The position numbers and the translations under genes are program-made. Below are positions 24,005 to 48,527 of a stretch of 64,000 nucleotides of DNA, in pieces; position 1 is the first letter of the stretch; every line of letters begins with the position of its first letter. The notes below the pieces were generated by a model, which saw only the letters and a program-made list of their open reading frames with translations, was not told where the DNA came from and did no database searches. Source of the stretch: Dehalococcoidia bacterium (lineage in GTDB: Bacteria > Chloroflexota > Dehalococcoidia > GIF9 > AB-539-J10). The stretch covers positions 63,843 through 127,842 of the forward strand of contig JAUVZB010000001.1 of NCBI GenBank assembly GCA_030602785.1, given 5' to 3'.

Positions 24005-24008
24005 CAGG

Positions 24009-30733: not shown

Positions 30734-30743
30734 TGGATATAAT
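30734..30743 (+). promoter_or_regulatory. extended -10-like element TGGATATAAT upstream of the DUF2520-panB genes
   Basis: Perfect TATAAT at 30738-30743 preceded by TG. There is no good -35. About 100 nt upstream of the 30845 ATG. Confidence 0.35.
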
Positions 30744-30844
30744 CCGACAGTCGCCCGGGGAAGAGGAGACTAGATAGATACCACTTGGAATGCGCCATCC
30801 GCTCCACCAGAGGAACGCAGTTCAAAGAAGGGGGAAAAGCAGAC

Positions 30845-31702: not shown

Positions 31703-31771
31703 AGCCGGCTTGCGCGACGGCCGTAGCTCACACAGCGACAATCCGGCCGGACACTACAGACGAAAAGGAGG

Positions 31772-32632
31772 GTGCATTTGGCAAAGAAGAAGACCGTTCT
31801 CGATTTCTTCAAGATGAAGGAATCGGGAGAGAAGTTCACTGAACTGGCGCTCTACGACTTTACGATGGCGATGCTGGCAGAGCAAGCCGGCCTCGAGATG
31901 ATTCTCGTGGGTGACTCTATGGGGAATGTCGTCTATGGCTATGACGGCACCGTTCCAGTGACCATGGAACAGATGATCTACCACGCGCAGGCAGTCCGCA
32001 GGGGCGCGCCCAACACATTCATCGTGGGCGACCTTCCATTTCTGTCATACCAAGTGTCAGTGGAGGATGCGGTCAGGAACGCCGGACGCTTCCACAAGGA
32101 AGCCGGCATGGACGCCGTCAAGCTGGAGGGTGGGCGGCAGATGGCGCCGCAGATACGCGCTATCTCAGATGCCGGCATGCTGGTAATGGCGCACATTGGC
32201 CTTACACCGCAGAGCGCCGCACAGATGGGCGGTTTCCGCGTCCAGGGCAACACGGCGCAGGCTGCCATGAAAGTCCTCGCTGATGCAAAGGCCCTGGAGG
32301 AAGCGGGCGCGTTCATGGTTCTTCTTGAGGGTGTTCCTGGGGAGACGGGCAAGCTGGTAACCGAGAAGCTGAGAGCTCCCACTATAGGCGTGGGTGCCGG
32401 CCCGGACTGCGACGGGCAGGCTGTACTGCTGAGCGACATTCTCGGCATGTACCCCGTGTTCACCCCCAAATTCGTCAAGCGCTACGCCATGCTCGGAGAG
32501 CAGGTGGTCAGCGCGGTAGGCGAGTTCGTCGCCGAAACCAAGTCCGGAGCCTTCCCTGCCTCAGAGCATTGCTATAGGATGAAAGAGGGCGAGGTGGAGA
32601 AGCTGGAGGCAACGCTGCGCGGGAAGCGGTAG
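31772..32632 (+). CDS. panB: 3-methyl-2-oxobutanoate hydroxymethyltransferase
   Basis: LALYDFTMAMLAEQAGLEMILVGDSMG...VGDLPFLSY. The likely true start is TTG at 31778, with AGGAGG 5 nt upstream. Confidence 0.9.
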   Translation: MHLAKKKTVLDFFKMKESGEKFTELALYDFTMAMLAEQAGLEMILVGDSMGNVVYGYDGTVPVTMEQMIYHAQAVRRGAPNTFIVGDLPFLSYQVSVEDAVRNAGRFHKEAGMDAVKLEGGRQMAPQIRAISDAGMLVMAHIGLTPQSAAQMGGFRVQGNTAQAAMKVLADAKALEEAGAFMVLLEGVPGETGKLVTEKLRAPTIGVGAGPDCDGQAVLLSDILGMYPVFTPKFVKRYAMLGEQVVSAVGEFVAETKSGAFPASEHCYRMKEGEVEKLEATLRGKR

Positions 32633-32684
32633 GAACTCGGCCTGTCCGTTGAAGCGCGGCAACCCAAAGCTGGATGCGAAGAAA

Positions 32685-32711
32685 GGCTGGGCTCCCGCGA
32701 GGGAGCCCAGC
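32685..32711. terminator. bidirectional intrinsic terminator between convergent panB and dctM
   Basis: GGCTGGGCTCCC-GCGA-GGGAGCCCAGCC forms an 11-12-bp perfect stem, flanked by AAAG and TTCTTT. Confidence 0.7.
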
Positions 32712-32741
32712 TTCTTTGTCACGTGTGCGACGGATCAAACG

Positions 32742-34073
32742 TTACATCAGACTCGGCAGCCAGAGGATAATCTGGGGGAAGGCAATACAGAGAGCCATCG
32801 CACCGAGAATAATGAACACGTAGGGAAACATACCGCGGATAATGTGCCCCGTGGTAATACCAAGGGCGGGATCCGCAGCCCCTCTCACATAGAAGAGCGC
32901 GTACGCAAAAGGTGGCGTCATGAAGGACATCTGCAGGTTGACGCAAATCATCATTGCGAACCACAAAGGATCAAATCCTGCCTCTGCAGCGATTGGCGTC
33001 ACGATGGGTACCATGATGAAGATAATGCCCAACCAGTCGATGAAGAAACCCAGGACGAAGCAGATGAACATGATGACGGCGAAGACACCCCACTTGCCCC
33101 CCACTGCATCGAGCACGAAGGCGCTCACAACCTTGTCGCAATTTGCCCGCATGAACACGCCCACAAACGCGAATGCCAGCGCGCCGATAAGCAGGACCAT
33201 GCCTGCCACCCGCACTGTGGTCATGGCGGTCCTTGCGAGAACCGCCCGGTTGAGCCTGCCATAGGCCAGGGCAAGCAAGATGGTAGCCATGGCCCCGACA
33301 CCTGCCGCCTCGGTCGGAGAAGCTATGCCGAAGAAGATGCTTCCCAGCACCGCAAGGATGAGCACTACCGGCGGCAGCATGGACTTGAGCAGCTTTCCTG
33401 CCTTCACGCCAAACGGAACCTGCCGGTCCGCCAGAGGCACGGGCGGCGCCAGTTGGGGCCGAACCAGGCACAGGACAATGACGTAGATGCAGTACATGGC
33501 GGACAGAAGGAAACCCGGCAGGAAAGCTGCGAAAAAGAGCTTCCCGACAGACAGTCCGGCCATGGGGCCGTACACCACGAGCATGATGCTCGGAGGTATG
33601 AGAATACCCAGGGAACCACCTCCACACACAGCGCCTGCTGCAAGAGACCTGTCGTAGCCCCTGTTGATCATCGCGGGGAGCGCTATGAGCGCCAGCATGG
33701 TGACCGACGCGCCGATGATTCCGACACATGCGGCCACAACCGTGCCGATAAGGATGGTAGTCACCGCAAGCCCACCCCGCAAGCCACCGAGCCACAGGTA
33801 GAGCGCGTCATACATCCCTTCAGCCACCCCCGAGTGCTCCAGCATCGTCCCCATGAAGACAAACAGTGGCACGGCGAGCAGGATGTAGTTGTTCATCGTA
33901 CTGAAGAACCGCCCGTAATAGAGCTCGGACGAGATGTTCGGGCCAAACAGGAGCAGGGACATGACGATTCCCACACCACCGATTGACAGCGCAAGCGGAT
34001 AGCCGAGGAGCACCCCCACAAGGATGCCACCCAGCATCAGAATGGCGACCAGTCCGGGACTCAGATCAATCAT
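32742..34073 (-). CDS. dctM: TRAP transporter large permease (copy 1)
   Basis: 443 aa, about 12 TM helices, with DctM-family motifs. Confidence 0.85.
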   Translation of the reverse strand: MIDLSPGLVAILMLGGILVGVLLGYPLALSIGGVGIVMSLLLFGPNISSELYYGRFFSTMNNYILLAVPLFVFMGTMLEHSGVAEGMYDALYLWLGGLRGGLAVTTILIGTVVAACVGIIGASVTMLALIALPAMINRGYDRSLAAGAVCGGGSLGILIPPSIMLVVYGPMAGLSVGKLFFAAFLPGFLLSAMYCIYVIVLCLVRPQLAPPVPLADRQVPFGVKAGKLLKSMLPPVVLILAVLGSIFFGIASPTEAAGVGAMATILLALAYGRLNRAVLARTAMTTVRVAGMVLLIGALAFAFVGVFMRANCDKVVSAFVLDAVGGKWGVFAVIMFICFVLGFFIDWLGIIFIMVPIVTPIAAEAGFDPLWFAMMICVNLQMSFMTPPFAYALFYVRGAADPALGITTGHIIRGMFPYVFIILGAMALCIAFPQIILWLPSLM

Positions 34074-34575
34074 AGGGCTTGCTCCTTATGGCGAAGTGCA
34101 GGTCGCGAACCAGGGTCGCCACGCCCTGCAGGAAGAAAAAGAGCAACCCGATGAAGACGAGAGTCCTGATCGGGCCAAGAATCGGGTACCAGAACGTTAT
34201 GTTGGACTTCTCATTGGTTTCCCACGAGTAAATGACCCAGTTCCAGGCCGCATAGGTCAAGAAGCCCATGCCGGGAAGAAAGAAAACGAACCAGAGGATA
34301 CTATCCATGATGGCCTGCATGCGCCGTGGAAACCGGGCGTAGAACACGTCCACGCGGACATGCCCTTTGTGCAGGTGCACGTAGCCAAACGCAAACGCGT
34401 ACAACGCGGCGCCGGTAAACGTGATGATACAGGGAAGCTGGATCGTGGGGCTGTTGAATACGTACCTCATCATCACCTCGATACAGACGACGGCGATGAG
34501 GGCAAAAACCAGCCACTTCAACTGCTCCCCGACCCACTCATTGACGGAGTCGACTAACTTGATTGCTTTTCTCAT
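34066..34575 (-). CDS. dctQ: TRAP transporter small permease (copy 1)
   Basis: 169 aa with 4 TM helices. Overlaps the dctM start by 8 nt. Confidence 0.8.
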   Translation of the reverse strand: MRKAIKLVDSVNEWVGEQLKWLVFALIAVVCIEVMMRYVFNSPTIQLPCIITFTGAALYAFAFGYVHLHKGHVRVDVFYARFPRRMQAIMDSILWFVFFLPGMGFLTYAAWNWVIYSWETNEKSNITFWYPILGPIRTLVFIGLLFFFLQGVATLVRDLHFAIRSKPYD

Positions 34576-34670
34576 TCAATCAGATCCCTTCCAATGTTAG
34601 GCCCCCTTCCGAGCGTAGGCCCGGAAGGGGGGCACATTCCGTATCAGGGGTACTCCCGGCGCACCGGTCG

Positions 34671-35798
34671 TCAGCCCCCGTACAGGGACTTCCAAGTTTC
34701 CCAGAAGGCCGTGTGCGAGGCCAGCATCTCGGCCATGGCGGGATCCTCGGCGGCAAGCTCATCCATGTACTCGGCCGCTATCTCCAGGAACGCCTCGTCG
34801 ATTGAAGCGGGTAGCAACTCGACGGTGACTCCGAAGTCCTTGAAGTCCTGGATGGCCTTCTCATTGGCCATGTGCAGGCGGGTGTGGTAGCTGACGGCCT
34901 CAGCGCGGCCGCAGTCCTCCACGATAACCTTCAAGTCATCGGGGAGCTCATTCCACTGGTCGGTGTTGATGAGCAACTGGTAGACCTCGGTCGGAGCGCG
35001 TGTCGGCGAGAGGTAGTAGTACTTGCCGACTTCCTGCAGGCCCATGCTCCAGTCGAACGCCGGGTTCGAGCACTCGTACGCGTCGATAAGGCCGCGATGC
35101 ATCGCCTCGAAGACCTCACCCAGAGGCATATATACGGCGCCCACACCCATCCGGTTGAGCACCACGCCACCATCGCCGGACGCACGCATCTTGAGTCCCT
35201 CTAGGTCCTCCGGACCCTTCAATTCCTTATCGCAGTGAATCCAGCCTTCAGGCAGGCCATGACAGCCCGCGCCCGCGATGTCAATGAAGTTGAACCCATA
35301 TTCAGGATACCACTTGTTGGCCAGGTCGGCGCCAACGGCGCGATGCCAGATCAGGTGAGGGATCGGCGGCATGCCGCCAACCCTCTGTGACATCATGCTC
35401 CCGAACCTGATATCACCGACCATGTACGACCCCCCTCCGGCACAGAAGTCAAGCACGCCGCTGCTTACCGCCTTGTATTCCTCGGTGGCAGGACACACCG
35501 CGCCGGCCGGTTTCGCATCCCAGACCAACCGTCCCTGGCTGGCCTCGCTAATCCTCTCGCTGAGTATCACCAGGCTTTCGTGAACCGGCATGCCTGAAGG
35601 AAGTGCAGCCTGGCCGACCCAGTTGATAACCTCCGCCGCGGGAGCCGCAGGGGCCTCTTCTTCCTCCGCAGGGGCTGCTTCCTCCTCTTCAGCGGCTGGA
35701 GCAGCCGCTTCCTCGGCAGCACAGCCAATGGCGCCAATACCGAGCACCATCACCAGCGCTGTCAGTACCAACAGTAGACGCTTGGACATCTTTCTCAC
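34671..35798 (-). CDS. dctP: TRAP transporter DctP-family substrate-binding lipoprotein (copy 1)
   Basis: Lipobox LGIGAIGC followed by a long AEEAAAPAAEEEEAAPAEEEE linker, then a DctP-type fold. Confidence 0.85.
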   Translation of the reverse strand: MRKMSKRLLLVLTALVMVLGIGAIGCAAEEAAAPAAEEEEAAPAEEEEAPAAPAAEVINWVGQAALPSGMPVHESLVILSERISEASQGRLVWDAKPAGAVCPATEEYKAVSSGVLDFCAGGGSYMVGDIRFGSMMSQRVGGMPPIPHLIWHRAVGADLANKWYPEYGFNFIDIAGAGCHGLPEGWIHCDKELKGPEDLEGLKMRASGDGGVVLNRMGVGAVYMPLGEVFEAMHRGLIDAYECSNPAFDWSMGLQEVGKYYYLSPTRAPTEVYQLLINTDQWNELPDDLKVIVEDCGRAEAVSYHTRLHMANEKAIQDFKDFGVTVELLPASIDEAFLEIAAEYMDELAAEDPAMAEMLASHTAFWETWKSLYGG

Positions 35799-35918
35799 CT
35801 CCTGTAAGAATATCTATGCCAACGGCGAATACCGCTTGCAGCAGCAATTCGCCGAATGATGCCCTCTCGCCGACAGCTAACTGATTCAGGCGCACCTGGC
35901 AAACAAAAAGACTCCTCC

Positions 35919-35949
35919 AGTATAGGAAGGCACGTTTGCAGATGTCAAT
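35919..35949 (-). promoter_or_regulatory. sigma70-like promoter for TRAP operon 1: -35 TTGACA (35949-35944), 19-bp spacer, -10 TATACT (35924-35919)
   Basis: Read on the reverse complement. The same architecture recurs upstream of TRAP operon 2. Confidence 0.45.
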
Positions 35950-36070
35950 AGCTGGCGGGAAGATTCTCACAGCTAAGTGCGCGTGTTCGTATGCGAATAT
36001 CTGGCATCGAAATCCAGAACAGCAGTCCAAGCGGGTCCGCCGCAGAAGTCCCTGTAGCCGGACGGCTCTT

Positions 36071-36157
36071 TGTCAGCCCGCCCGCGCGAGGCAAACGCTA
36101 TCTCGAATCCGCTGCCGCCGACACCGCCGACTGTCAGCCGGCCCACGCGAGGCAGAC
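36071..36157. repeat. 26-bp imperfect direct repeat pair (TGTCAGCCCGCCCGCGCGAGGCAAAC and TGTCAGCCGGCCCACGCGAGGCAGAC, 23/26 identical) at 36071-36096 and 36132-36157, 61 bp start-to-start
   Basis: Read directly from the sequence. Lies between the TRAP2 terminator and the TRAP1 promoter. Confidence 0.75.
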
Positions 36158-36163
36158 ACAAGA

Positions 36164-36193
36164 ACGGGGGCAACCTGCTGCGGTTGCCCCCGT
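36164..36193 (-). terminator. intrinsic terminator after dctM copy 2
   Basis: ACGGGGGCAACC-TGCTGC-GGTTGCCCCCGT forms a 12-bp perfect stem, followed on the minus strand by TCTTGTGTCTG. Confidence 0.65.
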
Positions 36194-36219
36194 TGGGAAC
36201 TCTTGGAAGTGTGAATTTA

Positions 36220-37554
36220 CTAGACCATCTGATTGGGCAGCCAGGTGATGATCTGCGGAAACGCGATGCAAAGGGCCAGCCCTATCACAATCATGGTGAT
36301 GAATGGAATGACCCCCTTCATGATGTGATGCGTCTCGATACCAAGTTCGGGAGGAGCTGCCGCCTTCACAAAGAAAATCGCGTAGGCGAACGGAGGAGTG
36401 AGGAACGACATCTGCAGGTTAATACAGATCATCATTCCGAACCACAGCGGATCGAATCCCGCGGCCACCGCAATCGGTGTGATGATGGGCACCATTATGA
36501 ACACGATACCGATCCAATCGATGAACATGCCCAGGATGAAGCAGAGGAACATCACCAGTGCAAATGAACCCCACATACCACCCGGCGCCGCCAGGAGGAA
36601 TTCCTCAATAACCGCGCCACAGTGGGCCCGGATGAACACACCTACAAACGCGGACGCCAGCGAGGCAATCAGCAGAATCATGCCGCTCAGCTTGATGGTC
36701 TCGAACGCGGTGTCCATCAGCGCGCGGATTGTGAGCTTGCGGTAGGCGACCGCGAGAAGGACAGAAGCCAGCGCACCGACGCCTGCGGCCTCAGTGGGGG
36801 CGGCAATGCCGAAGAAGATGCTCCCAAGGACCGCAAGGATGATGGCCAGTGGGGGAACGAGTGACTTCAGCAACATCGCCGTCTTCTTGCCCAGCGGAAC
36901 ATTGCGCTCCTCGATACTGACAGGCGGGCCAGCGTTGGGCCGGATGATGCAGTACACGATGACAAAGGCACAGTAGAGCCCCGCCAGCACGAACCCCGGA
37001 ATGAAGGCCCCGAAGAACAGCTTGCCGACGCTCAGGTTTGCCATCGGTCCGTACACGACAAGCATGATGCTTGGGGGAATGAGGATGCCGAGCGTGCCTC
37101 CGGCACACACGACACCTGTCGCGAGGGACTTGTCATAGCCCCTCTTGATCATAGCCGGCAGACCGATGAGCGCCAGCATTGTTGTCGATGCAGCGATGAC
37201 GCCGACACAGGCCGCCATCAGCGTTCCGATGAGCACGGTGGTAATAGCCAGCCCGCCTCGCAATCCTCCGAACCAGAGGTACAGGGCGTCATACAACCCC
37301 TCGGCCACTCCCGACTTCTCCATCATTGTGCCCATGAATACGAAGAAGGGGACCGCCAGGAGAATGTAGTTGGTCAGCTGATTGAAGACCCGGTTGTAGT
37401 AGAGCTCAGAGACTATCTTGCCTCCAAACAGCAGGAAGCCGACAATTACCCCAACTGCACCAACGGAAACCGCGAGCGGATAGCCGAGAAGCACGCCGAC
37501 CAACACGCCACCAAGAAGGAGAATCGTTACAAGTTCCGGGCTCATGTCAATCAA
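36220..37554 (-). CDS. dctM: TRAP transporter large permease (copy 2)
   Basis: Paralog of 32742-34073. Start set at TTG 37554 (MIDMSPELV, compared with MIDLSPGLV in copy 1), which reproduces the 8-nt overlap with dctQ. Confidence 0.85.
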   Translation of the reverse strand: MIDMSPELVTILLLGGVLVGVLLGYPLAVSVGAVGVIVGFLLFGGKIVSELYYNRVFNQLTNYILLAVPFFVFMGTMMEKSGVAEGLYDALYLWFGGLRGGLAITTVLIGTLMAACVGVIAASTTMLALIGLPAMIKRGYDKSLATGVVCAGGTLGILIPPSIMLVVYGPMANLSVGKLFFGAFIPGFVLAGLYCAFVIVYCIIRPNAGPPVSIEERNVPLGKKTAMLLKSLVPPLAIILAVLGSIFFGIAAPTEAAGVGALASVLLAVAYRKLTIRALMDTAFETIKLSGMILLIASLASAFVGVFIRAHCGAVIEEFLLAAPGGMWGSFALVMFLCFILGMFIDWIGIVFIMVPIITPIAVAAGFDPLWFGMMICINLQMSFLTPPFAYAIFFVKAAAPPELGIETHHIMKGVIPFITMIVIGLALCIAFPQIITWLPNQMV

Positions 37555-38056
37555 AGCGCTCACCTCTTGCCAAGAAGTACAGGTCGCGCCAGAGTTGCGC
37601 AACACCCTGCAACAGAAGCAGCAGGATGCCGATGAATATCGCCGTCCTCATCGGCGCGAGGGGAGGATACCAGTACGTGATGACCGACTTCTCGCCGATG
37701 GCCCACGCGTGAACCATCCAGGAACCTGAGCTGTACGTGAGCACACCTATCACAGGTAAGAACAGCGCGAAGAAGCAAGCCACGTCGACGATTGCCCTAC
37801 CCCTCTCCGAAAACCGATTGTAGAGGACGTCCACGCGAACGTGACCCTTGCGCAACAGCACAAAGCCCCATGAGAGCGTGTACATCGCTGCCGCGAAGTG
37901 TATGGGCACCTCGAAGCCCCACATAGTAGGATGGTTGAACAAGTACCTCTGACCCACCTCGATACAGGTGAAAGAAATGGCGATCAAGAGGAACCAGCGC
38001 ATGCTGCGGCCCATCCATCCGTTCACGGAATCGACCAAGTGCACGAGTTTTTTCAC
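37547..38056 (-). CDS. dctQ: TRAP transporter small permease (copy 2)
   Basis: 169-aa paralog of 34066-34575. Confidence 0.8.
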   Translation of the reverse strand: MKKLVHLVDSVNGWMGRSMRWFLLIAISFTCIEVGQRYLFNHPTMWGFEVPIHFAAAMYTLSWGFVLLRKGHVRVDVLYNRFSERGRAIVDVACFFALFLPVIGVLTYSSGSWMVHAWAIGEKSVITYWYPPLAPMRTAIFIGILLLLLQGVAQLWRDLYFLARGERFD

Positions 38057-38148
38057 ATTAAGACACCTTACAGCCTCACTCCGGGCTTCCCAGCCCGGAG
38101 TGAGGCTCCATGAAGCACTAGTACCAGGTCAAAAACACAGCCGGGACA

Positions 38149-39267
38149 CTAGGGCTTGGCCCAGGTGCCTTGGATCTGCTCCTGGAAGCCGAAGTAGGAT
38201 GCCAGAATCTCGGCAGCGAACGGGTCATCGGCTGCCTTGTTCGCATAGAACTCCGCAGCAGCGACGCCGTACTCCTCCACTAAGGCATCCGGCAATCTGC
38301 GGACGTCCGTGCCGTAGTCACGGAAGTGATCGAGCGCTTCGAGGTCCAGTCTGAGGAGCTCGGAATACGCCCTGATGGTCTCCGCCTGGTTCACCTCGGA
38401 TACAATCACCTTGAGGTCGTCGGGAAGCTCGGCCCATCGGGCCGCGTTCACGATGAAGGGATTGTACTCATAGGGTTGTCGAGCTCCGGACAGCCACAGG
38501 TAGTCGCCAACTTCGTTGAGACCGAGGTCCCAGTTCAGCGTCGGGCTGGCGCACTCGAAGGCATCGATGACGCCACGGTGCATGGACTCGAAAATCTCGC
38601 CTGCGGGCATCATGACCGGGCCGGCACCGAGCATGCCAAGAATCTCCGCGCCGTCACCGGCGCCTCGAATCTTCAGACCCTTGAGGTCACCCGCCTTCTT
38701 CAGTTCCTTGTTGGTCTGCAGGAATATCTCAGGGGGGCCCATCCAACCACCATCGCGGACGATATGGACATCGTAGCCTGCAATCATCTCATCGGCGAAC
38801 TCAGCGCCGCCACCCTCGCGGAACCAGATCAACGCCTCCATCGGGGACATGCCGCCCGACACCATGGTCATCATTCCGGCCGTGGGGAACTTGTCCATCC
38901 AGTACATGTAGCAGGTCACGGCAAAGTCCAGCACGCCGGAGTCGACCGCGTCGAACTCCTTGGATGCAGGCGCAATACCACCACCGACCTCAACCACCAT
39001 CTTCAGGCGACCGCCGCTCGCAGCCTCAATCTGCTCCCCCACCCTCTTCAGTGAAGCATGCTGCTGCGTGATGCCGCCGGCATGGGACTGTCCCACCCAC
39101 TCAAAGACTTCCTCCGTGGGGGCAGCCGGGGCAGCCTCTTCCTCCTCCTCCTCAGGTGCTGGCGCTTCCTCTTCAGGAGCGGGCTCCGCTTCTGGAGCAC
39201 AGCCAACAATCAGCAAGCTGACTATCGCGAGCGCGCCAATCAGGGTCCAGACAGATTTCTTGCTCAC
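38149..39267 (-). CDS. dctP: TRAP transporter DctP-family substrate-binding lipoprotein (copy 2)
   Basis: Lipobox LLIVGC plus an APEAEPAPEEEAPAPEEEEEE linker, then a DctP fold. Confidence 0.85.
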   Translation of the reverse strand: MSKKSVWTLIGALAIVSLLIVGCAPEAEPAPEEEAPAPEEEEEEAAPAAPTEEVFEWVGQSHAGGITQQHASLKRVGEQIEAASGGRLKMVVEVGGGIAPASKEFDAVDSGVLDFAVTCYMYWMDKFPTAGMMTMVSGGMSPMEALIWFREGGGAEFADEMIAGYDVHIVRDGGWMGPPEIFLQTNKELKKAGDLKGLKIRGAGDGAEILGMLGAGPVMMPAGEIFESMHRGVIDAFECASPTLNWDLGLNEVGDYLWLSGARQPYEYNPFIVNAARWAELPDDLKVIVSEVNQAETIRAYSELLRLDLEALDHFRDYGTDVRRLPDALVEEYGVAAAEFYANKAADDPFAAEILASYFGFQEQIQGTWAKP

Positions 39268-39296
39268 CTTTCACCTCCTATTATGATTCGAAACAT

Positions 39297-39318
39297 ACGT
39301 GTGCTGGTCGAACACACG
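39297..39318. promoter_or_regulatory. inverted repeat ACGTGTGctggtcgaaCACACG in the TRAP-2 leader (candidate operator or leader hairpin)
   Basis: 6-7-bp perfect arms with a 9-nt spacer, between the predicted promoter and the dctP-2 start. The TRAP-1 leader has an analogous GGCGAAT...ATTCGCC repeat. Confidence 0.3.
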
Positions 39319-39367
39319 GGACAATTCCAAGAGGTCCGTCCCACAAATGCGACCTCCCCCGCAGGAG

Positions 39368-39397
39368 AGTATACGAATCGTCCAACGCGAAAGTCAA
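39368..39397 (-). promoter_or_regulatory. sigma70-like promoter for TRAP operon 2: -35 TTGACT, 18-bp spacer, -10 TATACT
   Basis: Read on the reverse complement. Parallels the TRAP-1 promoter. Confidence 0.4.
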
Positions 39398-39600
39398 TAC
39401 TGCGTATGAACGGCCTCATCGCTTTCCAAGACCGCCTGGACCACGAACGTCCCCGCCGACTGCTGAACTATCTCCCTCTGCCAGCCGAGGAGATTTCTTC
39501 CCCGTAGCGTTTCAGTCATGCCTGCTTCACTCATGGGTCGAACGGCAGTAACACCGCGAGTGGCGCTTTCACAGGCTCCTCACCAGTGAATCCGCATGCA

Positions 39601-40863
39601 CTACCCGTCCAGCAGTGGCAGGACAAGTGGTCCATCGGGGATGACGGCGATCTCGGCATCATCGCCCAATCGCCGCAGGGCCATGGCAACCGCCTCATCC
39701 ATGTCATGGACCGGCTCAAGCTGCATGCTGCGAACCAGTTCGTCATCAAGCTCCGAAAGCAGCATCACCTGGTTCCGAAGCTGGATGCGAGCCAGTACCT
39801 GGTTCTGCCACTGGACACCGATGGGCTCCTCTCTGCGTATTCTCTGCAGGACATCAATCGGGCCTGTGCATGACTGGTGCAATTCCAGGAACGACTCCGG
39901 ACCGGCGCCGCTGGAGCAGGAAGAAGCCGCGATAACGATGCCGCCGTCTCGCGTCACGAGGGACGCAGTGTCCATGCCCTTGACCGTCTGGTACAGATCA
40001 AGATCGAGAGGCGCGCCGCTATTCGTCGTGATGGCGATGTCTACCCTGTGTTTGACCTTTGCACCTACGACGCCGCGCGCGGCTTCGCAGCCTGCCTCGT
40101 GTGCCGTAACCATGTCCCCTGCGAATACGTTGGTGATTTCCTTCTTGTCATTGAGGAGAACAGTGACGACGAAATCGAGGCCTGCCATCCTGGCCTGCTC
40201 AACCATGTCCTCATGAATGGGGTTTCCCTGCAATACACCCGCACGTGCACGGGGGTGCTCAATCATGCGGTAGCCGTGGTTCACATAGGCCGACTTCAGG
40301 CCGAATACGCCCGGAGCGATGCTCTTGCGGCCGCCGGAGAACCCTGCGAAGAAGTGAGGTTCTATGAACCCCGTGGACAGCCGGAAATCAGCCTCTACCA
40401 CTAGCGGGTTGATGTCTACCGGCGCGCCACGGGAAGTTACGCCGATGTTCACCACTTTCGAGGGGTCATGGTTGACAACCCGGTACTGTGTCACGATGTC
40501 ATCGCCGAGGAGGCGACGCAGTTCTTCCTCTCCGAGAGGGGGATGAAGGCCGAGCGCCACGATGATGGTGATCTGCTCTTTCGGAACAACGCGCTCCAGT
40601 TCCTGCAGAATCGGTGGCAGCAGCCGGTCGTCGGGGCAGGCGCGGGTGTTGTCCGTCACTATGACGACCACGTTGTCCTGCGGCTGCACCGCATCGGCAA
40701 GAGGCTTCTGGCCGAGGGGGTTGCGCAGAGCATCACGCACTGCGCCGGCCTCGTCGTCGATGCCGGCCACGTGATGGGGCTCGAGCACAAACGCAACATT
40801 GCGCTCGGGTACCCTCACCCTCACGGTCGATGAGCCGTACGGCAGCTCAAACTCGACATGCAT
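39601..40863 (-). CDS. larA: LarA-family nickel-pincer-cofactor (NPN)-dependent 2-hydroxyacid racemase/epimerase homolog
   Basis: 420 aa with a DUF2088-type N-terminus. EPHFFAGFSGGRKSIAPG contains the conserved Lys that tethers NPN in lactate racemase. Substrate unknown. Confidence 0.75.
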   Translation of the reverse strand: MHVEFELPYGSSTVRVRVPERNVAFVLEPHHVAGIDDEAGAVRDALRNPLGQKPLADAVQPQDNVVVIVTDNTRACPDDRLLPPILQELERVVPKEQITIIVALGLHPPLGEEELRRLLGDDIVTQYRVVNHDPSKVVNIGVTSRGAPVDINPLVVEADFRLSTGFIEPHFFAGFSGGRKSIAPGVFGLKSAYVNHGYRMIEHPRARAGVLQGNPIHEDMVEQARMAGLDFVVTVLLNDKKEITNVFAGDMVTAHEAGCEAARGVVGAKVKHRVDIAITTNSGAPLDLDLYQTVKGMDTASLVTRDGGIVIAASSCSSGAGPESFLELHQSCTGPIDVLQRIRREEPIGVQWQNQVLARIQLRNQVMLLSELDDELVRSMQLEPVHDMDEAVAMALRRLGDDAEIAVIPDGPLVLPLLDG

Positions 40864-40869
40864 AGAACG

Positions 40870-42240
40870 TCACCTGATTGCCGAGCCGGGATTCAGTATG
40901 TTGTTGGGGTCAAACACCTTCTTGATGCCCCTCATGAGTTCCTCGGACTTGGGGTCCATCATGAGGTCCAGATACTGCAGGCGAATCTTGCCGACACCGT
41001 GCTCTCCCGTAATGACGCCGCCCAGCGCAATAGCTGCCTCGTAGATCTCCTTCTTCACGGCCTCCGCTGTCCCACGCTCGATGAGTTCTTTCAGCATGTA
41101 CGGGTGGAAATTGCCATCCCCCGCATGTGCGATAGTCATGATCTTGGTGTCGTACTTGTCCGCAATCGCGTCGAGCGCGTCCAGCATCCTTCCCAGGCTG
41201 GCCGGTGGCACGGTGACGTCCGAGTCGCCCGCGATTCGAGGTTTCATGGCGGAGTAGATCTCACTGCGGATCTTGAGAATCTCGGCCTGCTCTTCGCGTC
41301 TCTCAGCAATGACCACGTCGATGGCGCCGTGCTCCTGGCACACGTCGGATATCTTCTCGCACTGGAAGTAGATATCGTCTTCGTTAGAGCCGGAGAGAAC
41401 CAGGAGCAGGTGTGAGGAGCCCTTCTCAGCCAGCCACTTCATGCCGAGATTCTCGGCAGAGAGAAGAATGACGTCATGGTCGACGTACTCAATGGCCATC
41501 GGAATGACGCCGCTCTGCAATATCTTGGGCACCGTATTGATGGCGGCGTGCCTGTCGTCATAGGAGACCACGAGAGTCGCCGTCCCCGCGAACTTGGGAT
41601 AGAGGCGCATCACGGCTTTCGTGATGATTCCTAGTATGCCTTCGCTATCGATGAGGAGGTGCATGAGGTCGAGACCCGTGTTGTTCTTCAGCAGCTTGCC
41701 ACCCATCGTCACTATCTCACCCGTCGGCATGACGACTTCGAGCCCCTTCACGTAATTGCGGACGACGCCGTACTTGACCGCCCGGGTTCCGCCGGCGTTG
41801 CACGCAATCATCCCGCCTACCTGTGCGCCCTCGTCACCCGGGTGCGGCGGAAACAGCAGATTGGCATCTTCCACAGCGGCGAGCAGGTCGCCCAGCGTCA
41901 CTCCGGCCTGCGCTGTGACCATCAGGTTCTCCTTGTCTACCTCCTCGACCTTGTCGAAGCGCTCCATGGAGAGGACTATGCCGTCCTGCGTCGGCATTGC
42001 GCCGCAGCAAAGGCCCGTGCCCGCACCACGTGGGTAGACCGGTGTCTTGTCGCGGTTCGCCAGCTTGAGGATTTCCGATATCTCCTGGGCCGTGCCTGGC
42101 TTCACTACCACAACGTGCTCGGCCGGGGTAAGCCGCTGATACGGTGTCGTCTCGTCGTACAGGTAGGTCTCCATCTGCTCGCGTTCGGTGACAACCCAGT
42201 CAGCACCAACTATTGCCCTCAGTCCTTCAACGTCAGTCAT
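40870..42240 (-). CDS. FAD-linked oxidase, GlcD/D-lactate dehydrogenase family (paralog 1)
   Basis: 456 aa. FAD-binding PCMH domain (VVVKPGTAQEISEILKLA...PRGAGTG) and C-terminal ...GEHGVGKIR.... Confidence 0.85.
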   Translation of the reverse strand: MTDVEGLRAIVGADWVVTEREQMETYLYDETTPYQRLTPAEHVVVVKPGTAQEISEILKLANRDKTPVYPRGAGTGLCCGAMPTQDGIVLSMERFDKVEEVDKENLMVTAQAGVTLGDLLAAVEDANLLFPPHPGDEGAQVGGMIACNAGGTRAVKYGVVRNYVKGLEVVMPTGEIVTMGGKLLKNNTGLDLMHLLIDSEGILGIITKAVMRLYPKFAGTATLVVSYDDRHAAINTVPKILQSGVIPMAIEYVDHDVILLSAENLGMKWLAEKGSSHLLLVLSGSNEDDIYFQCEKISDVCQEHGAIDVVIAERREEQAEILKIRSEIYSAMKPRIAGDSDVTVPPASLGRMLDALDAIADKYDTKIMTIAHAGDGNFHPYMLKELIERGTAEAVKKEIYEAAIALGGVITGEHGVGKIRLQYLDLMMDPKSEELMRGIKKVFDPNNILNPGSAIR

Positions 42241-42303
42241 GGTTCTTTGCTCCTCCTCGCTCGTTTGCTTGTCGACTCTTCGCCCTTGCGGCCGGCTCGG
42301 CTG

Positions 42304-43674
42304 TCACTTGATGGCAGAGTCCGGACTCAGCACGTTGTTCGGGTCAAACAGGTGCTTCAATCCTCGCATCAGGTCAAGGGATTTCGCATCGAGGCACATC
42401 TCGAGTTCCTGTAGCTTCGTTTTCCCGATGCCGTGTTCGCCGCTGATGACACCACCCATCTCCACTGCCCTGGCGTAGATTCTCCGCTTCACTTCTTTCT
42501 CGACCCCCCTCTCCTTCAGCTCGAGCATGAGATGTGGGTGAAAGTTGCCGTCGCCGGCATGGGCAACCATGGGTATCTTGGTGTCGTACTCCGCGCCCAG
42601 CCGGTCAATCTCATCCATCAGGTCACCGATAGCCGCGGGAGGCACCGTCACATCCAGAATCTCAGCGGTCCGCGCCTTGTACGTCATGCTCGTCTCGCTC
42701 CTGACGTGCAGGATGTGGGCCTGTTCCTCCCTGCTTTCGGCCATCAGGGTGTCGACAGAGCCGTTCTTCTCACAAATCTCCGAGATCTTCTCGCACTGCT
42801 CGTAAACATCGTCTTCGTTAGTTCCAGTCACGATGATGATGAGATGCGCAACGCCTTTCGTAGCCGGCCATGTCGTGCCGAGGTAGCTGGCTGTGGCCTC
42901 CATGAGGTCATGGTCCACGTATTCCACCGCCATCGGGATTACTCCGCTCTGCAGTATCTTCGGCACACTGCGCATAGCGGCATGACGGTCATCGAATGAA
43001 ATCACGAGCGTCGCGGGGCCCGCAAACTTCGGATACAGACGCAGTATAGCCTTGGTGATGATACCAAGTATGCCCTCGCTGTCGATAATCAGCTGCATGA
43101 GGTCAAGCCCCGTGTTGTTCTTCAGCAGTTTCCCGCCCATGGTGACGATTTCGCCAGTGGGAAGTAGAACTTCCAGCCCCTTCACATAGTTGCGCACAAC
43201 TCCATACTTCACAGCCCTGGTGCCTCCAGCATTGCAGGCGATAAGACCTCCGACCTGGGCGCCCTCGTCACCGGGATGTGGCGGGAAGAGCAGTTCCGCC
43301 GATTCGACAGACTGCAGCAGTTGCGACAGCGTGACGCCGGCCTGCACGACCGCCATCAGGTTCTCCTTGTCGATCTCCTCTACCTTGTCCAGGCGTTCCA
43401 TTGACAGAACGACGCCGTCGCGTGTCGGTATGGCGCCGGCGCAGACTCCGGTGCCGCCACCGCGAGGATACACGGGGAAGCCTTCCTCGTTTGCCAGCCG
43501 CATTACCTGCGAGATCTCCTGCGCATTCGCCGGTTTCACGACAACTACGTTGTCTGCCGGCGTCATGATGAGGCCTGTGTATGTCTCGTCAATCAGGTAA
43601 CTCTCCATCTGCTGGCGATCCGTGACAACCCAGTCCTCCCCCACTATTGACTTCAGCTTCGATATGTCGAACAT
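42304..43674 (-). CDS. FAD-linked oxidase, GlcD/D-lactate dehydrogenase family (paralog 2)
   Basis: 456 aa, roughly 75% identical to paralog 1 by eye. Confidence 0.85.
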   Translation of the reverse strand: MFDISKLKSIVGEDWVVTDRQQMESYLIDETYTGLIMTPADNVVVVKPANAQEISQVMRLANEEGFPVYPRGGGTGVCAGAIPTRDGVVLSMERLDKVEEIDKENLMAVVQAGVTLSQLLQSVESAELLFPPHPGDEGAQVGGLIACNAGGTRAVKYGVVRNYVKGLEVLLPTGEIVTMGGKLLKNNTGLDLMQLIIDSEGILGIITKAILRLYPKFAGPATLVISFDDRHAAMRSVPKILQSGVIPMAVEYVDHDLMEATASYLGTTWPATKGVAHLIIIVTGTNEDDVYEQCEKISEICEKNGSVDTLMAESREEQAHILHVRSETSMTYKARTAEILDVTVPPAAIGDLMDEIDRLGAEYDTKIPMVAHAGDGNFHPHLMLELKERGVEKEVKRRIYARAVEMGGVISGEHGIGKTKLQELEMCLDAKSLDLMRGLKHLFDPNNVLSPDSAIK

Positions 43675-43701
43675 GTGGTCAGATCACTCCTTGCGGCCCT
43701 C

Positions 43702-44859
43702 TCAGATAGTCGGCCCAACTGTGTAGATGTTACAGTTGACGCCCGACCCGTCGTAGTCAAGTATCTCTGCCTTCACTTCTTCACCCGAGAACACCTGCAG
43801 AACGCTCTCATACACGCGCCTCCCTGCGTCCTCCACGGTCTCACTGCCTGTGATTATGCCGCTCACATCGATGTCGATGTATTCGGCAAGGCGCGTGCAG
43901 GTGAGTTCATTTCCAGATATCTTGATCACGGGGCTGAGTGGGAAACCCTGTGGGGCGCCGATTCCAGTTGAGAACAACATCACCTGGCAGCCCACTGAAG
44001 CCAGTCCTGTCAGGAATTCCATCTCGCGACCCGGCGAGTCCATGAAGTATAGACCCTGTCCACCGGGCCGCTCTCCGTATTTTACGACACCGTCTATGGG
44101 CAGTGTCCCCGACTTTACTATCGCTCCCAGAGACTTCTCTTCGATAGTGGTCAGCCCGCCTCTGATATTTCCTTCGGTAGGCTGTCCACCGCGCATGTCT
44201 ACACCCATTGCGTTGACACGATGCTCCATAGCTGTCACACATCCCAGCAATTTGTCGGCCACCTCAGGGCTTGACGCCCTCTTGACGAGGATGTGCTCTG
44301 CGCCAATGACCTCCGTGGTCTCCCCGAAGACAACCATCGCGCCGGCACGAACAAGCATATCAACCGCGGCGCCGGCTGCGGTATTGGAGGCCAGGCCGGA
44401 GGTGGTGTCAGAGGCGCCGCACTTGACGCCGACAATGAGGTCCGACAGCGATATTTCACACCGCTCAGCCTGCACCGTTTTCGCGAGCCGCCTTGCAGCC
44501 TCAATCCCGCTTTCTACAGCTACGGTGATGCCACCCATTGCCTGAACGCGGATAAGCTCCACAGGCTTGTCCTGCCGCTCGACGGCCACAATCTCGTCCG
44601 CGTTGACCGACTCGCAACCGAGGCTGACCAGCACAACTGCCGCGACGTTCGGATTGCGGCACAATCCGATGAGAACGTCCGTCACTATCCTCACATCCGT
44701 CGGCAACTGGCAGCATCCCTGATGGTGCAGCATCGGCCGTGCACCGTCTACCGCAGCCCCTATCCTGCGAGCCACCTCATTCACGCAGCCCACGGTGGGC
44801 ACAATCGCGACGTAGTTCCTGGCCCCCGCAGGGCCCTTCTGTCTGCTGTATCCTTGCAT
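43702..44859 (-). CDS. UxaA-family (altronate/galactarate dehydratase C-terminal domain) dehydratase with no N-terminal SAF domain
   Basis: 385 aa, with multiple conserved Cys/Gly blocks of the GD_AH_C type (GCCQLP, SLGCE, KCGASDTTSG). Confidence 0.65.
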   Translation of the reverse strand: MQGYSRQKGPAGARNYVAIVPTVGCVNEVARRIGAAVDGARPMLHHQGCCQLPTDVRIVTDVLIGLCRNPNVAAVVLVSLGCESVNADEIVAVERQDKPVELIRVQAMGGITVAVESGIEAARRLAKTVQAERCEISLSDLIVGVKCGASDTTSGLASNTAAGAAVDMLVRAGAMVVFGETTEVIGAEHILVKRASSPEVADKLLGCVTAMEHRVNAMGVDMRGGQPTEGNIRGGLTTIEEKSLGAIVKSGTLPIDGVVKYGERPGGQGLYFMDSPGREMEFLTGLASVGCQVMLFSTGIGAPQGFPLSPVIKISGNELTCTRLAEYIDIDVSGIITGSETVEDAGRRVYESVLQVFSGEEVKAEILDYDGSGVNCNIYTVGPTI

Positions 44860-44902
44860 CCCCCTCTGTACCTCCTTATCCCAGATTTCTCCGCCGCGCC
44901 GG

Positions 44903-46258
44903 CTATGGCAGTGCAGTGCCCGGATTCAGGATGTCGTTCGGGTCGAACAGCTTCCTGATGCCCTGCATGAGCTCGAGCGATTTGTCGTCAAGGCAGAGCG
45001 GGAGTTCTGCTTTCCTGATCTTGCCCACGCCGTGCTCCGCCGTGATAGTTCCACCCATTCTGGCCGCCTCTACGTATATGTCGTGTTTCACGTCATTGAG
45101 CACGCCTCGCTCATAGAGTTCCAATGGAATGTGCGGATGTATGTTTCCGTCACCTGCATGGCCGTAGGTGATGATGCGTGTCTGGTACTTCTGAGAAATG
45201 TCATCCAGTACGTCGAGGAAATTCGCGATTTCGGCCGGAGGTACGGCCATATCCAGGACGTCGGCCACCTGCGGCTTCAGCGCCGGATAGAGCTCGCTTC
45301 GAATCTTGAGGATGTTCGCCTGCTCCTCTCGCGTGTCGGCCATAAGGGTGTCTACCGCGTTGAGCCCCTCGCATACCTTGATTACGGTAGCCGCCTGAGA
45401 ATAGACATCGTCCTCATTGCTGCCGGTCACGATGACAATCAGATGCGCCATACCCTTCTCCGCAGGCCAACGCTTTCCGAGATGGTCCGCCGAAATCTGA
45501 ATCACATCGCGCTCAACATACTCCAGCGCGAGCGGGATGACACCCGTCTGCAGTATTTTCGGGACGGCCTTGATGGCGGAATGCCTGTCGTCGAACGACA
45601 CTATCAGGGTGGCCGACGCCGCGAAACACGGGTAGAGCCTGAAGATGACCTTCGTTACGATGCCAAGTATGCCCTCGCTGTCAATCATCAGATGCATCAG
45701 GTCGAGCCCGGTATTGTTTTTGAGGAGCTTGCCCCCCATTGTCACTATCTCACCCGTCGGCATGACGACTTCGAGCCCTTTCACGTAGTTGCGCACCACG
45801 CCGTACTTCACCGCGCGCGTGCCGCCGGCGTTGCAGACGACCAGTCCGCCGAGTTGCGCACCCTCATCGCCAGGATGGGGAGGAAAGAGCAGGTCAGCCT
45901 CCTCGACTTCCTTCAACATCTTCTCGAGCGTCGCGCCTGCTTCGGCCACCACCATGAGGTTCTCCTTGTCGACCTCGATAATCCTGTCGAGTCGTTCCAT
46001 CGAGAGAACGATGCCGGGAATAGTAGGCACCGCACCACCGACACAGCCTGTGCCCCCCCTGGGAAACACCGGGATTCGGTGCTCGTTCGCTAGTCTCAGT
46101 ACGCTGGAAATCTCTCAGGGGTTGGCCGGTTTCACAACCACGACATCGGAAGCGGGTTTCGGCCGAACCGGAAGGGCGGTCACATCCGTCAGGTAGCTCT
46201 CCATGAGCGCCAGGTCGGTCAGCACCCAATCCTCGCCGACGATTTCCTTCAGGTTCAT
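44903..46258 (-). pseudogene. GlcD-like FAD oxidase paralog 3, interrupted by an in-frame TGA at 46117..46115
   Basis: My translation from the ATG at 46258: MNLKEIVGEDWVLTDLALMESYLTDVTALPVRPKPASDVVVVKPANP*EISSVLRLANEHRIPVFPRGGTGC... The TGA sits exactly where paralogs 1 and 2 have Gln (KPANAQEIS). The downstream 388-aa frame (ORF track 44903-46069) is intact and conserved. Confidence 0.6.
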
Positions 46259-46847
46259 TACCAGTTCGTTCTGCATCTTGCCTCCCGATTGTAGTTTACA
46301 CGCGGCGCAACGCTATTCCGCGGCGCGGACTGATTGCAGGATGGTGCCGGGGGCCTGTGATGTGTGGGGCACTCTCGGGGAGCGCACCTGACCGAGAGGG
46401 CGCGTGTAGCAACTGCGATTGGCTGCTCACCCAGCAGAGCCAGGCCGCTGACCGGCGACGCGGGGCCGCAAATCGCTCGACGCCTACGCAGTGGCCTGCT
46501 GGGTGTCGGTTTCCAGTATCTCACTCCATCATTGCCCGATACGTGGCGAACCTGCATAACGCGGCAACCCCCCAAGGCCAACCTTTCGTCGGGAGCAACG
46601 ACCACCGTGTCCCTGAAGCATCAGTAACGCTGTCGCGGCAAGGCGCCCTGAGCCGGACGACCTCTTGCGAAACTGAGTCAAATCATGCCAAACCGGCAGC
46701 ACGGCAGGCAACAAAGCCGAACAATTGTACACGTTGCCGGGCGCACACGGTAGTCTCCTGTGAGACAGCCGGTGACCCGCCAGGATTGCCCTCAGATGTT
46801 CTTGACGCTTCGAAAGGGGCGATGCTAAGCTAGCCGCAACCTTCGAT

Positions 46848-48527
46848 TTGCGACAATTTATGGATACTGACGCCAGGACCCACCGTGTTTCTACCAGCGA
46901 TGATGTCGAGGTATCCACATATCTTGGCATCGCCCAGGCATTGCAGGGTGAAGAGCCAATCCCCCAGGATACGACTCCCCTGAGTGGGCGCGAAGCAATC
47001 GTCATACTCGACTTCGGATCGCAGTACAGCATGCTGATAGCACGCCGTATCCGCGAGTGCCACGTATACTGCGAAGTGTTGCCACACGACACGCCGTGGG
47101 AAAAGATCGAGCCTTTGAACCCCCGTGGATTCATTCTATCCGGTGGTCCCGCCAGCGTGTACTCGCAGGACGCGCCGCTGCCGCCAACCTATGTCTATGA
47201 AAAGCATCTTCCGGTTCTCGGCATCTGCTACGGGATGCAGGCCATTGCACATCAGCTCGGCGGGCAGGTCTCTCCCGGAGAGAACCACGAGTACGGGCAT
47301 GCCGTGCTCCATCTCGATGCGGGGGACTCGCCACTGTTCTCAGGACTTCCACCGTCGGGCCCGGTGTGGATGAGTCACGGTGATGTTGTGAGCGAACTGC
47401 CTCCCGGCTTCCGGGCACTCGCATATACGGAGAATTCGCCGCTCGCCGTTATCGGAAACACCGACGACATCTACGGACTGCAGTTCCATCCCGAGGTGAC
47501 ACACACACCACAGGGACGGCAAATCATCGAGAACTTCGCGTACAAAGTGTGCGGCTGCAGCGGCAATTGGACGCCTGCCCGGTTCATCAATGAGAGCGTC
47601 GACCGTATCCGCGAACAGGTGAAGGACGGCAAGGTCGTCTGCGCCCTGTCAGGTGGTGTCGACTCGGCTGTCACCGCAATGCTCATCCACCGGGCGATAG
47701 GCGACAATCTCACCTGTATCTTCATCAACAACGGACTGCTGCGCAGAGAAGAACCCGAGCGGGTTCTCAATACCTTCCACAACAATCTGAATGTCCGGGT
47801 GATTTTTGTCGACGCCACCGACCGATTCCTGCGCGGGCTAAGCGGGGTTGTCGACCCGGAGCAGAAGCGTCGCATCATCGGTGAGGAGTTCATTCACGTA
47901 TTCGAGGAGGAGGCCGACAAACTCGGCGCAGTGGACTTCCTTGCACAGGGCACGGTGTATCCGGACGTTATCGAGAGCAGCAGTTCCCCTGAACACGAGG
48001 CTTCAGCCCGAATCAAGAGCCACCACAACGTGGGTGGATTGCCGGCCCTGATGAAGCTGAACCTCGTTGAGCCGCTGAGATACCTCTTCAAGGATGAAGT
48101 TCGCGAGGTCGGTCTGGGTCTCGGGTTGCCCGAAGAAATGGTGTGGCGTCAACCCTTCCCCGGGCCTGGTCTGTCTATTCGTGTGATAGGCGAGGTGACG
48201 AAAGAACGTCTCGATATTCTCCGTTCGGCAGACTGGATCGTCATGAACGAGGTGAAGAATGCCAATCTCTATGGACAGCTGTGGCAGAGTTTTGCTGTCC
48301 TGACGGATGTCAGAAGCGTGGGAGTCATGGGCGACTTCAGAACTTACGGATACCTCATCGCGGTGCGTGCTGTGAACAGCACGGACGCGATGACTGCTGA
48401 TTGGGCGCGTTTGCCCTACGAGTTGCTCGACAGGATCTCGCACCGCATCGTCAACGAAGTTCCACACGTGAACAGGGTCGTCTACGACATCACCAGCAAA
48501 CCCCCCTCAACCATCGAATGGGAGTGA
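46848..48527 (+). CDS. guaA: GMP synthase (glutamine-hydrolysing)
   Basis: GATase domain ([28 protein letters not shown]), ATP-PPase SGGVDS motif and a C-terminal dimerisation domain. The true start may be downstream of 46848. Confidence 0.9.

Follow-up and report, generated by a model that had tools for sequence, protein, structure and literature searches.

A 64,000-nucleotide stretch of a Dehalococcoidia genome (the window) carries, between panB (31772-32632, plus strand) and guaA (46848-48527, plus strand), 11 minus-strand open reading frames (ORFs) that encode two TRAP transporters, a LarA-family protein, three GlcD-like flavoenzymes and a large subunit of the UxaA/GarD superfamily. On balance, this block is best read as a vertically inherited catabolic locus of a Dehalococcoidia lineage in which small chiral 2-hydroxy-monocarboxylic acids, L and D alike, are channelled into 2-oxoacids and chiefly into pyruvate. 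Small monocarboxylic 2-hydroxy-acids are preferred as the substrate class because four lines of evidence agree: the specificity residues of LarA (F-F-W-Q), the kinship of the GlcD proteins with LctD, that of the solute-binding DctP proteins with TTHA0766, and the make-up of a related cluster in a sister lineage (L024).

In the pathway that we infer from the sequence, the acids would be imported by two lipid-anchored TRAP systems whose binding proteins differ, the candidates being DL-lactate and closely related acids, for instance glycerate or 2-hydroxybutyrate. LarA, a nickel-pincer (NPN) enzyme of the lactate-racemase group, would then interconvert the L and D forms. The D forms would be oxidised by LctD-like, FAD- and metal-dependent D-2-hydroxyacid dehydrogenases, namely three ancient GlcD paralogs with differing side-chain pockets (two of them intact in this genome), with electrons probably passing to an electron-transfer flavoprotein (Etf) encoded elsewhere. 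An iron-type UxaA/GarD large subunit might dehydrate a glycerate-like 2,3-dihydroxy substrate to a 2-oxoacid, and pyruvate would finally yield acetyl-CoA and ATP via an ADP-forming acetyl-CoA synthetase, the gene for which lies about 7 kb from the TRAP end of the locus. Anoxic sediments hold abundant, mostly uncultured Dehalococcoidia, about whose carbon sources little is known. If this reading is true, a conserved locus for hydroxy-acid uptake and stereo-convergence would mark fermentation products such as D/L-lactate as substrates of the lineage. The locus also supplies three naturally diverged D-2-hydroxyacid dehydrogenases, and it combines a nickel-pincer racemase with a UxaA-type dehydratase, a pairing that recurs widely with no function assigned.

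Racemase, dehydrogenases and transporters

LarA matches the Protein Data Bank (PDB) entries 2yjg (E-value 6.9e-87) and 5huq (6.6e-82). Alignment with 5huq places the catalytic His108 and His174 (L. plantarum numbering) in LarA of the window and in every ortholog, together with the NPN-binding residues Arg75, Lys184, and His200 as well as Tyr294, Gln295, and Lys298. The specificity quartet, at the equivalents of F175, F176, W358, and T359, reads F-F-W-Q here and in almost every ortholog. Lactate racemases usually have F, F, W, and E or Q at these positions, and their group also racemises glycerate and 2-hydroxybutyrate; LarAH43, which bears the Q, even slightly prefers glycerate (1.14e5 M-1 s-1) to lactate (0.83e5 M-1 s-1) (PMC11770544). 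The commonest neighbors of group-1 LarA are COG0277 and ETF (PMC7583248, Table S1). A cluster of this kind is found in the sister lineage, a more distant Dehalococcoidales metagenome-assembled genome (MAG), where the order TRAP-EtfB-EtfA-GlcD-LarA-GlcD (L024, 3670-15622) is followed by genes for enolase and a DUF4147/MOFRL glycerate kinase; the arrangement is lct-like, with a possible link to glycerate.

The same quartet bears on a hexonate or uronate pathway, in which LarA would be a C2 epimerase (gluconate/mannonate-like) that feeds an altronate/galactarate-type dehydratase. Sugar acids had been among the substrates offered by the original prediction, which was made from the sequence alone, and most UxaA/GarD members are indeed sugar-acid dehydratases (PMC6336799). 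However, gluconate 2-epimerases typically carry E-V-A-H where LarA has F-F-W-Q, NCBIfam hexonate-epimerase models give LarA only 25 bits, and the DctP proteins are nearest to binders of lactate and 2-oxoacids. Large subunits 59-60% identical to that of the window do stand with KduI, KduD, Eda, KdgK, and TRAP genes in two loci (L009, L043), but 2-keto-3-deoxygluconate (KDG) kinase, aldolase, and uronate isomerase genes are absent from the block and its orthologs. The extra IlvD-family dehydratase that some relatives carry within the block could likewise be counted for sugar acids; by its score (718 bits against an equivalog cut-off of 618), it is a bona fide dihydroxy-acid dehydratase. A sugar-acid pathway is accordingly improbable, and this option of the original prediction is disfavored.

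TRAP systems of the DctP type classically carry C4-dicarboxylates, and a pathway for such acids would make LarA a malate or tartrate racemase, the UxaA-type subunit a tartrate dehydratase and the GlcD proteins dehydrogenases of D-malate or D-2-hydroxyglutarate. COG2721, altronate dehydratase, shows a 100% association with the LarAH group that includes Mar1 (group 5) (PMC7583248, Table S1), and tartrate is also epimerised by malate racemases (PMC11770544). LarA of the window, though, has W-Q in place of the H/Q-K pair of malate racemases and reaches 409 bits against the malate-racemase model, the cut-off of which is 500. In addition, the GlcD pockets differ from the cationic T/N/K pocket of D2HGDH (PMC10589216), and the top structural relatives of the DctP proteins bind monocarboxylates. 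A C4-dicarboxylate pathway is highly improbable by these measures.

The best solved relative of the GlcD paralogs is LctD, the Etf-dependent lactate dehydrogenase of Acetobacterium woodii (PDB 7qh2, 1.9e-86), and the gene for GlcDa lies 6 nt upstream of that for LarA. Their pocket positions were read with the structure paper on mouse LDHD (mLDHD) as a guide (PMC10589216). The metal- and carboxylate-binding subsite A (mLDHD R347, H398, H405, E442, and H443) is invariant across all three GlcD classes, whereas the side-chain pocket (subsite B) reads L/Y/D/Y in GlcDa, V/S/I/H in GlcDb, and C/Y/V/H in GlcDc and is conserved within each class. Among GlcDb orthologs, the first three positions are invariant and the fourth is mostly H, with T or Y in four. 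In a neighbor-joining tree, the paralogs form three separate clades with all species in each, and both Etf-linked GlcDs of L024 fall inside the GlcDa clade.

The multiplicity of the GlcD and TRAP genes had been taken in the original prediction for recent adaptive duplication. This is refuted because the paralogs have diverged (GlcD, 62-66% mutual identity, with GlcDa and GlcDb at 66%; TRAP subunits, 42-68%), each of them is closer to its positional ortholog (74-89%), and the GlcD clades are separate with pockets of their own. Judged by sequence divergence, the duplications are old, and the GlcD set reflects old subfunctionalisation, not recent amplification. These proteins do not fit glycolate oxidase (GlcDEF), in which GlcD goes with GlcE and the Fe-S subunit GlcF: the GlcDs score 349-357 bits against TIGR00387 (cut-off 568), and no CCG-domain protein is encoded in the locus.

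GlcDc carries two lesions in the window: an in-frame TGA at codon 54 (46115-46117, minus strand), where orthologs have E, Q, or G, and the loss of one Gly from the PRGGGTG FAD loop (46046-46060, minus strand). Elsewhere the ORF is intact, catalytic residues included, and so are the orthologs in other MAGs (458 amino acids). Because both lesions are also present in the Logan assembly of SRR14872671, a run that may be the window's own sample, they are not the artefact of one assembler, and an assembly error at the TGA is unlikely; two metagenome pattern scans returned no further copies. Selenocysteine insertion or other recoding was rejected, given that orthologs have E, Q, or G and not Cys at this codon and that the Gly loss accompanies it. 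In this population, GlcDc has probably become a pseudogene recently, and the otherwise intact ORF suggests that its inactivation is very recent.

The two TRAP systems are complete sets of P, Q, and M components, with identities of 42.5% between DctP1 and DctP2, 47% between DctQ1 and DctQ2, and 68% between DctM1 and DctM2. The DctM2 ORF extends to 37605, and comparison with DctM1 points to the ATG at 37545 as its likely start. For both DctP1 and DctP2, the best PDB matches are 4pet, 5cm6, and 2zzv/TTHA0766 (a lactate-binding protein), the first two of which were reportedly solved with pyruvate bound. As read from the translations, the signal peptides of DctP1 and DctP2 end in a lipobox Cys (AIGC and IVGC, respectively), followed by an acidic linker of 30-40 residues rich in Glu, Ala, and Pro. 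These features suggest that both proteins are lipid-anchored, in a cell without an outer membrane.

The UxaA-type subunit

The alignment of the UxaA-type large subunit (UxaA-L) with GarD (6u7l) covers residues 124-504 of the latter only, and the N-terminal SAF domain is absent. A hidden Markov model (HMM) of the SAF subunit, run against the six-frame translation of the window and eight orthologous loci with intergenic gaps included, found no SAF small subunit (best E = 0.27). UxaA-L does keep the four conserved cysteines C25, C49, C82, and C147, which have been proposed as the iron ligands of the superfamily and are not conserved in sulfolactate sulfo-lyase (PMC6336799). UxaA-L is 48% identical to a heteromeric homolog from a context of the L-fucose type (L047) and 41% identical to a putative SuyB in a SuyAB-like context of Variovorax, the latter of which lacks three of the four cysteines. 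Across Dehalococcoidia, UxaA-L orthologs are 75-80% identical, and because this conservation is as strong as that of the neighbors (LarA, 71-77%; GlcDs, 74-85%), the subunit is probably functional.

A racemase that feeds a lyase is reportedly found in Chromohalobacter, and by the same logic the locus might serve sulfolactate degradation, with UxaA-L as SuyB (sulfolactate sulfo-lyase), one of the GlcDs as SlcD and LarA as a sulfolactate racemase. SuyAB, which is heteromeric, belongs to the UxaA/GarD superfamily (PMC6336799). The presence in UxaA-L of all four cysteines that the sulfo-lyase does not conserve, and of which the putative SuyB lacks three, led to the rejection of a SuyB-like function. 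Moreover, the SAF HMM detects no SuyA/SAF subunit in the window, the window holds no sulfite exporter or sulfite dehydrogenase gene, and no cationic residue of LarA is placed so as to meet a sulfonate group. The sulfolactate explanation can be given almost no weight.

Outside the clade, homologs about 60% identical to UxaA-L were found in seven contexts, with an adjoining SAF small subunit in all seven and a LarA-family gene nearby in six, the exception being a Halodesulfurarchaeum locus (L010). The LarA-family neighbors are NPN isomerases of NCBIfam 'group 22' in four of these contexts (L007, L008, L042, L044), and a lactate-racemase-type (LAR-type) LarA with F-F-W-Q stands near UxaA-L in KDG-type loci (L009, L043). 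The cultured Sporomusa termitida (pSPTER) has LarAH, SAF, and UxaA-L (50% identical) together with a TTT transporter. More distant homologs (36-49% identical) retain the SAF partner and have no LarA neighbor. Pairs of a LarA-family isomerase and UxaA-L were thus met with three LarA groups, in Dehalococcoidia, in Sporomusa and on several unassigned metagenomic contigs. A literature search on LarA with UxaA, on SuyB with altronate dehydratase and on lactate racemase with Dehalococcoidia found nothing relevant.

The SAF, UxaA large subunit and 'group 22' NPN-dependent isomerase genes form a recurrent, uncharacterised module. In three of the four loci (L007, L008, L044), genes for an FGGY kinase and a DeoR regulator come after it, a GlcD and CCG pair lies upstream in L007 and L044, and L042 holds the three-gene core only.

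The association with LarA points to a coupling in which inversion at C2 would precede beta-elimination by UxaA-L. As the LarA of the locus is LAR-type, a short 2,3-dihydroxy-acid such as glycerate is the candidate substrate, and this dehydration is the weakest part of the model. A bolder form of it, which we regard as rather unlikely, would see LarA and an iron-type UxaA/GarD large subunit without SAF as a route, independent of ATP, that leads from DL-glycerate (or a different short 2,3-dihydroxy-acid) to pyruvate and is flanked by three D-2-hydroxyacid dehydrogenases with distinct pockets, and pairs of a LarA-family isomerase and UxaA-L more broadly as an uncharacterised module that inverts at C2 and then dehydrates.

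It could be argued instead that UxaA-L is a non-functional or unrelated passenger left after loss of SAF, and that the locus is no more than a cluster for lactate utilisation. The SAF partner accompanies UxaA-L homologs in 12 of 12 contexts outside Dehalococcoidia and is missing from the window and the eight orthologous loci, and the state of GlcDc shows that gene decay does occur in the locus. On the other hand, UxaA-L is intact, its conservation matches that of its neighbors and so implies a similar constraint, and all four cysteine ligands lie within the large subunit. Little credence is therefore given to a passenger.

The preferred reading, a locus for 2-hydroxy-monocarboxylic acids in which UxaA-L takes part, has its own points to answer. 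The consistent presence of a SAF partner elsewhere leaves room for a UxaA-L that is inactive, has its partner encoded elsewhere or serves another function, and we know of no UxaA/GarD member that acts on glycerate. LarA scores 459.2 bits against the NCBIfam lactate-racemase equivalog NF033504, 0.8 short of the cut-off of 460. Among ORFs of at least 200 amino acids in the window, none encodes LarB, LarC, LarE, or a regulator, so that the supply of the cofactor would depend on genes elsewhere; no ETF domain was found in these ORFs or in the orthologous loci, and the electron path would likewise lead outside the locus. The similarity of the DctP proteins to TTHA0766 is distant (87-107 bits). Finally, the promoter and terminator calls (Table 1) are consensus matches only, those at the dctP genes being sigma-70-like. 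All of these weigh against the reading to some extent.

Organization and conservation of the locus

The original prediction had reported 11 co-directional genes flanked by panB and guaA on the opposite strand, and this is confirmed, except that the block had been ended at 46258, whereas the first ATG of its last gene, that for GlcDc (44903-46276), is at 46276. The family names given there held as well, since an HMM check with Pfam and NCBIfam places all ORFs as named (DctM, DctQ, and DctP twice; Lar_N with LarA_C; FAD_binding_4 with FAD-oxidase_C three times; GD_AH_second with GD_AH_C), and, as had been predicted, no regulator domain turned up in the block. The enzyme genes are spaced by 6-63 nt.

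In relatives, the gene order is guaA / GlcDc-UxaA-GlcDb-GlcDa-LarA-(sometimes an extra ilvD)-DctP2Q2M2-DctP1Q1M1 / panB, with guaA/purD on one side and panB on the other. The same arrangement occurs in many Dehalococcoidia and Dehalococcoidales MAGs, which were recovered by exact-protein look-ups and a scan of GTDB genomes, and in at least 10 MAG species synteny extends over the entire block, at 72-85% identity. These relatives come from soda-lake sediments, Zodletone spring, an anaerobic bioreactor and Danish soils, and their proteins are 72-91% identical in amino acids to those of the window. The GC content of the block (0.58-0.60) equals that of its flanks. Because composition does not differ from the flanks and synteny with guaA/purD and panB is conserved, the locus is a vertically inherited core and not an island, as it had been called; horizontal acquisition is rejected on the same grounds. 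The genes larA, glcD, and uxaA are co-conserved in Dehalococcoidia relatives. A self-contained sequence of import, C2 inversion and D-specific oxidation and/or dehydration had been proposed, and one functional unit does fit, because the enzyme genes are tightly spaced and co-conserved; only its sugar-acid branch is disfavored.

The extra ilvD lies between LarA and DctP2 in nine relatives (L002-L006, L013, L014, L019, L022) and is 55-57% identical to the ilvD of the window (28590-30257). It is absent from the window and from L012, L017, and L021. These last three carry a second panB-like gene at the position of a DUF2520/Rossmann-like oxidoreductase gene that, in the window, lies directly upstream of panB (30785-31702, plus strand) and may be of the ketopantoate-reductase type.

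Table 1. Genes and predicted transcription signals of the locus (positions in the window)
Feature	Coordinates	Strand	Length (amino acids)	Remarks
Terminator-like GC-rich hairpin	32686..32711	-		just downstream of dctM1; 11-bp stem, 9 GC pairs; consensus scan only
DctM1, TRAP large permease	32742..34073	-	443	Pfam DctM 2.2e-76; TIGR00786 301.5 bits, cut-off 268
DctQ1, TRAP small permease	34066..34575	-	169	Pfam DctQ 5.7e-19
DctP1, TRAP solute-binding protein	34671..35798	-	375	Pfam DctP 3.1e-32
Promoter-like site TTGACA-18-TATACT	35919..35948	-		upstream of dctP1; 11/12 matches; consensus scan only
Terminator-like hairpin	36163..36194	-		just downstream of dctM2; 13-bp stem, 9 GC pairs
DctM2, TRAP large permease	36220..37545	-		Pfam DctM 2.3e-84; TIGR00786 312 bits
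DctQ2, TRAP small permease	37547..38056	-	169	Pfam DctQ 6.5e-18
DctP2, TRAP solute-binding protein	38149..39267	-	372	Pfam DctP 2.6e-30
Promoter-like site TTGACT-18-TATACT	39368..39397	-		upstream of dctP2; 10/12 matches; consensus scan only
LarA, predicted NPN-dependent 2-hydroxyacid racemase of the lactate-racemase group	39601..40863	-	420	Lar_N 2.6e-61; LarA_C 2.1e-36
GlcDa, LctD-like FAD D-2-hydroxyacid dehydrogenase	40870..42240	-	456	FAD_binding_4 and FAD-oxidase_C
GlcDb, second paralog, distinct pocket	42304..43674	-	456	FAD_binding_4 and FAD-oxidase_C
UxaA/GarD-superfamily large subunit without SAF	43702..44859	-	385	GD_AH_second 5.4e-34; GD_AH_C 4.4e-84
GlcDc, third paralog, interrupted	44903..46276	-		FAD_binding_4 and FAD-oxidase_C; in-frame TGA, Gly lost

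The hairpins and promoter-like sites suggest three transcription units in the locus, an operon structure read from these signals. Rfam searches of 30000-49000 gave nothing credible in the way of a riboswitch or known RNA (the sole match had E = 0.95), and a search for an operator motif shared upstream of the three putative units returned 12-mers at chance level only. At 571 nt, the intergenic region between guaA and GlcDc (46277-46847) is of unusual length; neither an Rfam match nor a promoter-like site lies in it, and the ORFs that overlap it look spurious.

On the minus strand at 22967-28125 lie three adjacent genes, for a DRTGG/AAA_26 protein, the ADP-forming acetyl-CoA synthetase (24009-26132, 707 amino acids) and a fusion of an acetyl-CoA hydrolase/transferase with a GNAT domain, which plausibly form the acetate- and ATP-yielding end of pyruvate catabolism. 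The rest of the window is housekeeping in nature (tRNA synthetases, purine and histidine biosynthesis, glycolysis).

Relation to known clusters and families

LarA of the window has the same domain architecture as LarA of L. plantarum and T. thermosaccharolyticum and LarAH43 of Enterocloster asparagiformis, and it shares with them the F-F-W pocket and every catalytic and NPN-binding residue, as well as, with LarAH43, the Q at the T359 position. Its similarity to them is only moderate (279-295 bits), and racemase activity is predicted. Among the PDB matches, lactate-binding TRAP proteins of the TTHA0766 type are the closest solved relatives of DctP1 and DctP2. Unlike TTHA0766, the proteins of the window are lipoproteins with long acidic linkers, and at this low similarity lactate is a candidate ligand only.

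The UxaA-type subunit shares the second and C-terminal domains and the four cysteines with the UxaA/GarD dehydratases (UxaA, GarD, those for D-arabinonate and D-idonate, and the heteromeric SuyAB and a predicted L-fuconate enzyme). Unlike these, it lacks a SAF domain, and no SAF subunit accompanies it in the window or the eight orthologous loci. The loci of LarAH group 5 (Mar1) with COG2721 and a TTT transporter (PMC7583248, Table S1), for instance that of Sporomusa termitida pSPTER, resemble the window in that a LarA-family isomerase adjoins a UxaA-family large subunit and an organic-acid transporter. They differ in having another LarA group, a SAF small subunit, TTT in place of TRAP and no GlcD paralogs, and their pathway is itself uncharacterised.

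The closest parallel to the locus as a whole is the lct cluster, which comprises a permease or transporter, D-iLDH, EtfAB, and a racemase (PMC8914356). As found in Acetobacterium woodii and Anaerobutyricum (LctA-G, with a permease, the D-iLDH LctD, EtfAB, and the racemase LctF), it shares with the window a transporter, a LarA-family racemase and a FAD-dependent D-lactate dehydrogenase, and the adjacency of an LctD-type dehydrogenase to a lactate racemase recurs as GlcDa beside LarA. Unlike the lct cluster, the window locus has two TRAP systems and no LctP-type permease, lacks Etf (LctBC) and an LctA regulator, and has three diverged dehydrogenase paralogs, as opposed to one, plus the UxaA-type subunit; the L024 sister locus does carry EtfBA, like the lct cluster. 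The original prediction had stated that no characterised pathway has this gene combination. That holds for the added UxaA-type subunit, which is uncharacterised, but not for the transporter, LarA, and FAD D-lactate dehydrogenase, which together make up the characterised lct module. The core of the locus is a variant of this known lactate-utilisation module, and its new elements are the dual TRAP uptake, the three diverged dehydrogenases and an unexplained SAF-less UxaA-type subunit.

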